From the IMG/VR virus record IMGVR_UViG_2585427777_000025: DNA of 10,970 bases. One strand, given 5' to 3'. Of the stretch, positions 6,743 through 10,424 are shown in pieces. Position numbers and translations under genes: made by a program. Origin of the DNA: a virus. Taxonomy: Duplodnaviria > Heunggongvirae > Uroviricota > Caudoviricetes. The stretch's first letter is position 1. Every line of letters starts with the position of its first letter. The notes beneath the pieces are model-generated. The model saw only the letters and a program-made list of their open reading frames with translations. It was not told the DNA's origin and did no database searches.

Positions 6743-10424
<3,682 letters not shown>

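Follow-up and report, generated by a model that had tools for sequence, protein, structure and literature searches.

An extra A in the terminase gene A of a deleted Qin prophage is very probably an inherited frameshift rather than a sequencing error

The window, meaning the whole 10,970-nt stretch of DNA that was analysed, was compared by megablast with 5426 complete E. coli genomes, which placed it in the ydfJ-pinQ-tfaQ-nohA neighbourhood. The gene order is ydfJ'-ynfT-ydfK-pinQ-tfaQ-stf'-E'-D-C-B-W-A-nohA (Table 1). Because annotated syntenic loci in six complete genomes and the gene content of a sister contig (L009) agree, the window is identified by its gene content as the cryptic lambdoid prophage Qin (Kim), inserted in ydfJ. 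Flanking the late region of this ydfJ-inserted element are pinQ-tfaQ-stf at one end and, on the opposite side, nohA-ynfO-ydfO. It is defective and lacks the genes for a particle, E being cut after codon 62 and FI through lom being deleted. The truncated ydfJ marks the boundary of the Qin insertion.

The intact pinQ gene adjoins the tail-fibre remnant made up of tfaQ and stf'. In a 2025 paper, PinQ-driven inversion in Qin is reported to inhibit T2 adsorption (PMC12529663).

Table 1. Features of the window, with positions counted from its first nucleotide.
Feature	Position	Strand	Remarks
ydfJ'	1-1284	-	N-terminally truncated, 427 aa left, as annotated in all syntenic genomes
ynfT, ydfK	about 1889-2304	+	
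pinQ	2621-3211	+	serine recombinase gene, intact
tfaQ	3309-3884	-	
stf'	3884-4838	-	what is left of the side tail-fibre gene, its last ~318 codons; ORF 3884-4855 (-)
E'-stf deletion junction	4834-4842 (about 4838-4842)		few bases of microhomology, GGTTA / GGTAA
E'	4839-5024	-	codons 1-62 only of major capsid gene E; runs out of frame into tail-fibre DNA; 75-aa ORF 4797-5024
D	5081-5413	-	head decoration gene, 110 aa, intact
C/Nu3	5423-6742	-	S49 head protease and scaffold gene, 439 aa, intact
B	6723-8324	-	portal gene, 533 aa, intact; one synonymous SNP vs CFS3246
W	8321-8527	-	head-tail joining gene, 68 aa, intact
Gene A	8524-10450	-	large terminase subunit (gpA), 1927-nt pseudogene; minus one A, 641 aa with 99.4% identity to lambda gpA
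Downstream gene A fragment	8524-8946	-	as called by gene finders: 140 aa, N-terminus MPRKRNKNG; distal nuclease part and gpA C-terminal tail
Upstream gene A fragment	8981-10450	-	480 native and 9 out-of-frame residues (TWAVPGDPH), then stop; from translation and Pfam, exact product in other assemblies
A7 homopolymer	9010-9016	-	T7 on the plus strand; +1 insertion site, ancestral A6; from sequence and alignments
Nu1/nohA	10425-10970	-	small terminase subunit gene, 181 aa, intact

Gene A is read as two overlapping open reading frames, both on the minus strand. The frames meet at a run of seven A with the minus-strand context GAACGCTCGAAAAAAACATGGGCTG, which lies in the wider stretch TATGAACGCTCGAAAAAAACATGGGCTGTTCCGGGTGATCCCCATTAA. 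The upstream ORF encodes 489 aa and ends YERSKKTWAVPGDPH before its stop codon (longer form IVYERSKKTWAVPGDPH). The downstream ORF (8524-9183) includes ARKKHGLFRVIPIKG (longer form ARKKHGLFRVIPIKGASVYGKP) and terminates in ALSGEDE. An uninterrupted gpA frame is absent from the gene as encoded, the +1 insertion leading to a stop at 8981-8983. When one A was deleted, the reconstructed protein of 641 aa was identical to lambda gpA at 637/641 positions, with 0 gaps. Since removal of a single A restores gap-free identity, both ORFs belong, in collinear order, to a single gene. The initial annotation had taken them for N-terminal and C-terminal portions of a single gpA-like terminase, and translation and alignment bear out its coordinates, the length of the run, both ORFs and their collinearity. 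The 642-codon gene that it expected on dropping one base corresponds to the 641 aa of the reconstruction plus the stop.

The reconstructed protein has the domain order of a lambda-type gpA on one polypeptide. Pfam identified GpA_ATPase (PF05876, E 2e-50) at residues 47-285, followed by GpA_nuclease (PF20454, E 2e-74) at residues 322-600. The frameshift splits GpA_nuclease at profile position 160 of 294. In the 489-aa fragment the ATPase domain is kept, as is roughly the N-terminal half of the nuclease (profile positions 2-160 of 294); the distal half of the nuclease and the C-terminal tail are missing. A sequence search of the PDB returned no entry matching gpA. The gene lies between Nu1 and W, downstream of cos; in the near-identical sister contig, cosN (GGGCGGCGACCT) is found 189 nt upstream of Nu1. 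Lambda gene A (J02459 711-2636) has the same 641-aa length and the same Pfam domains as the reconstructed product, and the flanking order Nu1-A-W-B-C-D-E is common to both. Unlike lambda gene A, the gene in the window has an extra A after codon 480 and yields a 489-aa product, and it sits in a chromosomal remnant rather than in a viable phage.

The neighbouring head genes were described in the initial annotation as intact, and they are. Nu1, W, B, C and D keep the lambda lengths (181, 68, 533, 439 and 110 aa, respectively) and have no indels. The same annotation suggested that the base in the A-run might be the only lesion in the packaging and head genes. That suggestion fails, since a deletion of about 15.5 kb truncates E after codon 62 and FI, FII and all tail genes are gone. 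Compared with strain CFS3246, whose Qin is full-length, the window lacks about 15.46 kb, and codon 62/63 of E is joined to the 3' part of stf. FI, FII, Z, U, V, G, T, H, M, L, K, I, J and lom are removed, together with about 706 codons of stf. On the E side the sequence ends GGTGAGGTTA, on the stf side it resumes (GGGTA)ACCGCGCTGACAG, and the 30-mer across the junction is GGTGAGGTTAACCGCGCTGACAGACAATAC. With E and all tail genes lost, the prophage could not assemble particles, whatever the state of gene A.

The allele at the run was examined in phages and in other Qin elements. A megablast of 8524-10450 against 50,697 phage records gave 88 near-full-length matches; among the phage matches listed, the gene spans 1926 nt (one 1925) vs 1927 nt in the window. 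Aligned with lambda J02459, phage PhiR42_1 and the Qin loci of five E. coli strains, the window has exactly one extra base at the run (A7 vs A6). Alleles were then counted with a 76-nt query centred on the run, in which a copy matching at ≥99% must be identical and so carries A7. A7 was present in 1/3241 complete E. coli records with a match (4569 copies), 0/80 phage records and 0/45 plasmid records, and A6 was in frame in 80/80 phage and 45/45 plasmid records. At these frequencies A7 is not a chance feature. None of 185,579 species-representative genomes contained the exact 41-nt A7 pattern.

The closest relatives also have A6. The Qin of LR-03 (NZ_AP027474.1) matches 8966-10970 of the window with 0 mismatches and 1 gap, the base in the A-run. 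Over 6137 nt, the Qin of CFS3246 differs by five SNPs, one mismatch at the junction and the same base. Because A7 is nearly absent from the E. coli, phage and plasmid copies and the Qin relatives LR-03 and CFS3246 carry A6, A6 is, on this comparison, the ancestral state and A7 a recent derived one. The initial annotation had proposed aligning the gene to lambda gene A and to the same prophage in related strains, and these alignments give A6 as ancestral.

All five SNPs relative to CFS3246 are synonymous, four in gene A (9380, 9416, 9488, 9587) and one in gene B (7746). The four in gene A lie within 208 nt, and that stretch is identical in LR-03. Such clustering would fit a recombination tract better than decay following inactivation.

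The initial annotation left open whether the extra base is a real mutation or a homopolymer error. If it were an error of sequencing or assembly, the true genome would have A6 and an intact gene A. We used recurrence as the decisive test, looking up the exact sequence of the 489-aa truncated product and confirming A7 in the DNA; the evidence consists of assembled sequences. The product with A7 was found in NCBI assemblies GCA_025403935.1 and GCA_025403915.1, and in Logan assemblies SRR31047924 (a contig in 12 samples) and SRR17398007 (5 samples). A second look-up, with the E' product specific to the junction, added GCA_000713855.1 (JOST01000155.1), which is 100% identical to the window over 10,970 nt and in which the same truncated gene A ORF is called from a later start. 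In all, at least 4 distinct assemblies, belonging to at least 3 independent accession series, carry A7, as do 17 Logan samples. A single SNP at position 187 sets GCA_025403935.1 and GCA_025403915.1 apart from the window, so these two are separate isolates. The carriers are near-clonal, so they represent independent sequencing of the same mutation event.

The rest of the window bears on the same question. Against references of 99.9% identity it has 0 gaps over 1-4839, 0 over 6412-8967 and one, the A-run, over 4834-10970. No other private indel was found, and all 19 other homopolymers of ≥6 nt match these references, including A8 runs and a native A7 at 8724-8730 in gene A. The T8 of the D-E intergenic region (plus-strand A8, 5038-5045) was considered as a second private slip and rejected; the same 78-mer occurs in 54 complete genomes.

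Two points speak for an error. Among the 5426 complete E. coli genomes, A7 occurs at this position in SCU-482 alone (NZ_CP053247.1 27687-45762), which shows that such an artefact does happen here, and a systematic error of one platform, common to all runs, would mimic the recurrence of A7. SCU-482 was set aside as evidence for the allele. Its annotation marks most of the lambdoid late genes as frameshifted, an alignment to the window shows 27 gaps in 6 kb, and its assembly looks riddled with homopolymer errors, making it unfit for the purpose. A 7-nt run is short for a platform error. Against an error in general, separate isolates carry A7 and the remaining homopolymers are unaltered. As independent projects reproduce the same 7-nt run, we regard an assembly error as very unlikely, and the choice posed by the initial annotation falls to a real inherited mutation.

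A real extra base might still allow some protein to be made if the run were a recoding site. A +1 slip of tRNA-Lys on AAA-AAA-A, or an RNA polymerase dropping one A, would restore some full-length gpA and make the locus a 'pseudo-pseudogene'. On A7 the tRNA-Lys can re-pair perfectly one base downstream, so that a low-level +1 ribosomal slip is chemically possible, and rescue of disrupted bacterial genes by slippage is documented (PMC1088944). A recoding site is expected to have a conserved run and a two-frame layout. Here A7 is unconserved, and the gene is in frame with A6 in the 80 phage copies, the 45 plasmid records, about 4500 E. coli copies and 3240/3241 E. coli records. Transcriptional slippage is selected against, or used, at runs of about 9 and occasionally 8 (PMC1088944), and here there are only 7 nt. 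For rescue, the transcript would have to lose one base; in a study of E. coli, slippage at A/T runs mostly added bases, and deletions were seldom linked to homopolymers (PMC5574713). It would also be pointless, with E and all tail genes gone. We accordingly give rescue by recoding only a very small chance. The idea that the two ORFs are independent genes of a split terminase draws on the gene callers, which give two products of 489 and 140 aa. An identical 140-aa sequence is encoded by 261 contigs; one source calls it 'terminase gpA endonuclease subunit'. The same name is given to a partial 3' piece of gene A in other Qin remnants, whose match to the 140-aa product is only putative; such annotated 3' pieces are flagged as partial pseudogenes in Qin deletion remnants. 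The split is refuted by the 637/641 gap-free identity obtained on removing one base, and the break falls in the middle of a single Pfam domain. Two separate genes are practically out of the question.

The explanation we favour, and hold to be very probably correct, is that slippage added one A to gene A of Qin and that the frameshift is a real, inherited decay mutation in a defective prophage. Replication slippage would have inserted one A:T pair, turning the A6 at codons 479-481 into A7. Translation leaves the gpA frame after Lys480, adds nine wrong residues and stops, and the product is without the distal half of the nuclease domain at its C-terminal end, the domain of DNA maturation, and without the C-terminal tail. 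The mutation is inherited in a small E. coli clone. As the prophage is incapable of forming particles, the frameshift would be neutral decay with no phenotype of its own. Both the frameshift and the deletion would be recent.

The truncated product probably cannot cut cos or mature cos DNA. Just beyond the frameshift lies the motif GASVYGKP (residues 491-498), which we take to be P-loop-like and to include K497. The last ~32 residues of gpA are presumably the prohead- and portal-binding site, and because this site is lost, the product is not expected to dock on the portal or on proheads. Because a prophage without E and the tail genes makes no particle, the frameshift most likely adds no phenotype. 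In lambda, the C-terminal maturation domain of TerL holds the cos-nicking endonuclease and a high-affinity ATP site (PMC7229814), and the portal is bound by gpA (PMC2366019). A different role can be imagined for residues 1-480 of gpA, which keep the Nu1-binding N-terminus and the packaging ATPase. Co-expressed with intact Nu1, they might be dominant-negative against the terminase of a superinfecting lambdoid phage, and the broken gene would then have a defence-like role rather than being junk. That all the SNPs are synonymous would be explained equally well by a recent lesion. We put little more than token weight on this.

The deletion and the A7 allele were found together. The E'-stf junction was not found in the 5426 complete E. 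coli genomes, among which only one record covers ≥80% of the window, with a different structure. In the look-up of the 75-aa E' product, every contig with the junction that reaches the A-run site also has A7, and none of these contigs combines the deletion with A6. By this distribution, the junction and the A7 allele are private to a small clone. As clone-specific markers, they could serve in strain typing.

Qin elements of other strains share the ydfJ site and the markers ydfJ', ynfT, ydfK, pinQ, tfaQ, stf, nohA, ynfO and ydfO, and, as in the window, their late region is partly deleted. What distinguishes the lineage of the window is that it has kept nohA through D and the first 62 codons of E. 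In CFS3246, the same element has a full lambda-like late operon, nohA through J, lom, stf and tfaQ. MLI105 and WP2-S18-ESBL-08 have other deletions in the late region, and LR-03 has an inversion plus a deletion. Judged from these structures, E. coli strains show different stages in the decay of the Qin late region.

In homopolymer-slippage pseudogenes of prophages, the same single-base expansion of a short A:T run leads to a premature stop in an unneeded gene. The present case has no notable difference from these and is a textbook example; this kind of event, pseudogenisation of a prophage gene by a homopolymer slip, is routine and already known, and no open question in biology turns on this case. 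Its main use is in annotation, where the proper label is a frameshifted gpA pseudogene in a Qin remnant, not two terminase genes and not part of a near-intact prophage. The case also serves as a worked example of how a real homopolymer mutation can be told from an assembly artefact without reads, by checking independent assemblies for the very same truncated product.

PGAP marks analogous genes as 'frameshifted' in A37 and SCU-482. In A37 (NZ_CP029327.1), which carries a different prophage, the site equivalent to 9010-9016 reads AAAAAAG, with an extra G after A6, and an A4 has expanded to A5 about 100 nt upstream (window 9112). Its gene A is 1928 nt long and annotated as frameshifted; the changes could be real or assembly errors alike.

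The T-run at 5038-5045 follows a GC-rich hairpin and is one base longer than in strain 19KM2326N, T8 vs T7 being a shared polymorphism. LR-03 has an inversion, relative to the window, that reaches from the middle of C into the 3' part of gene A (window 6412-8967). One breakpoint, at 8966/8967, lies only about 45 nt from the A-run, and the inversion is, by its position, an independent breakage of the same Qin terminase gene.
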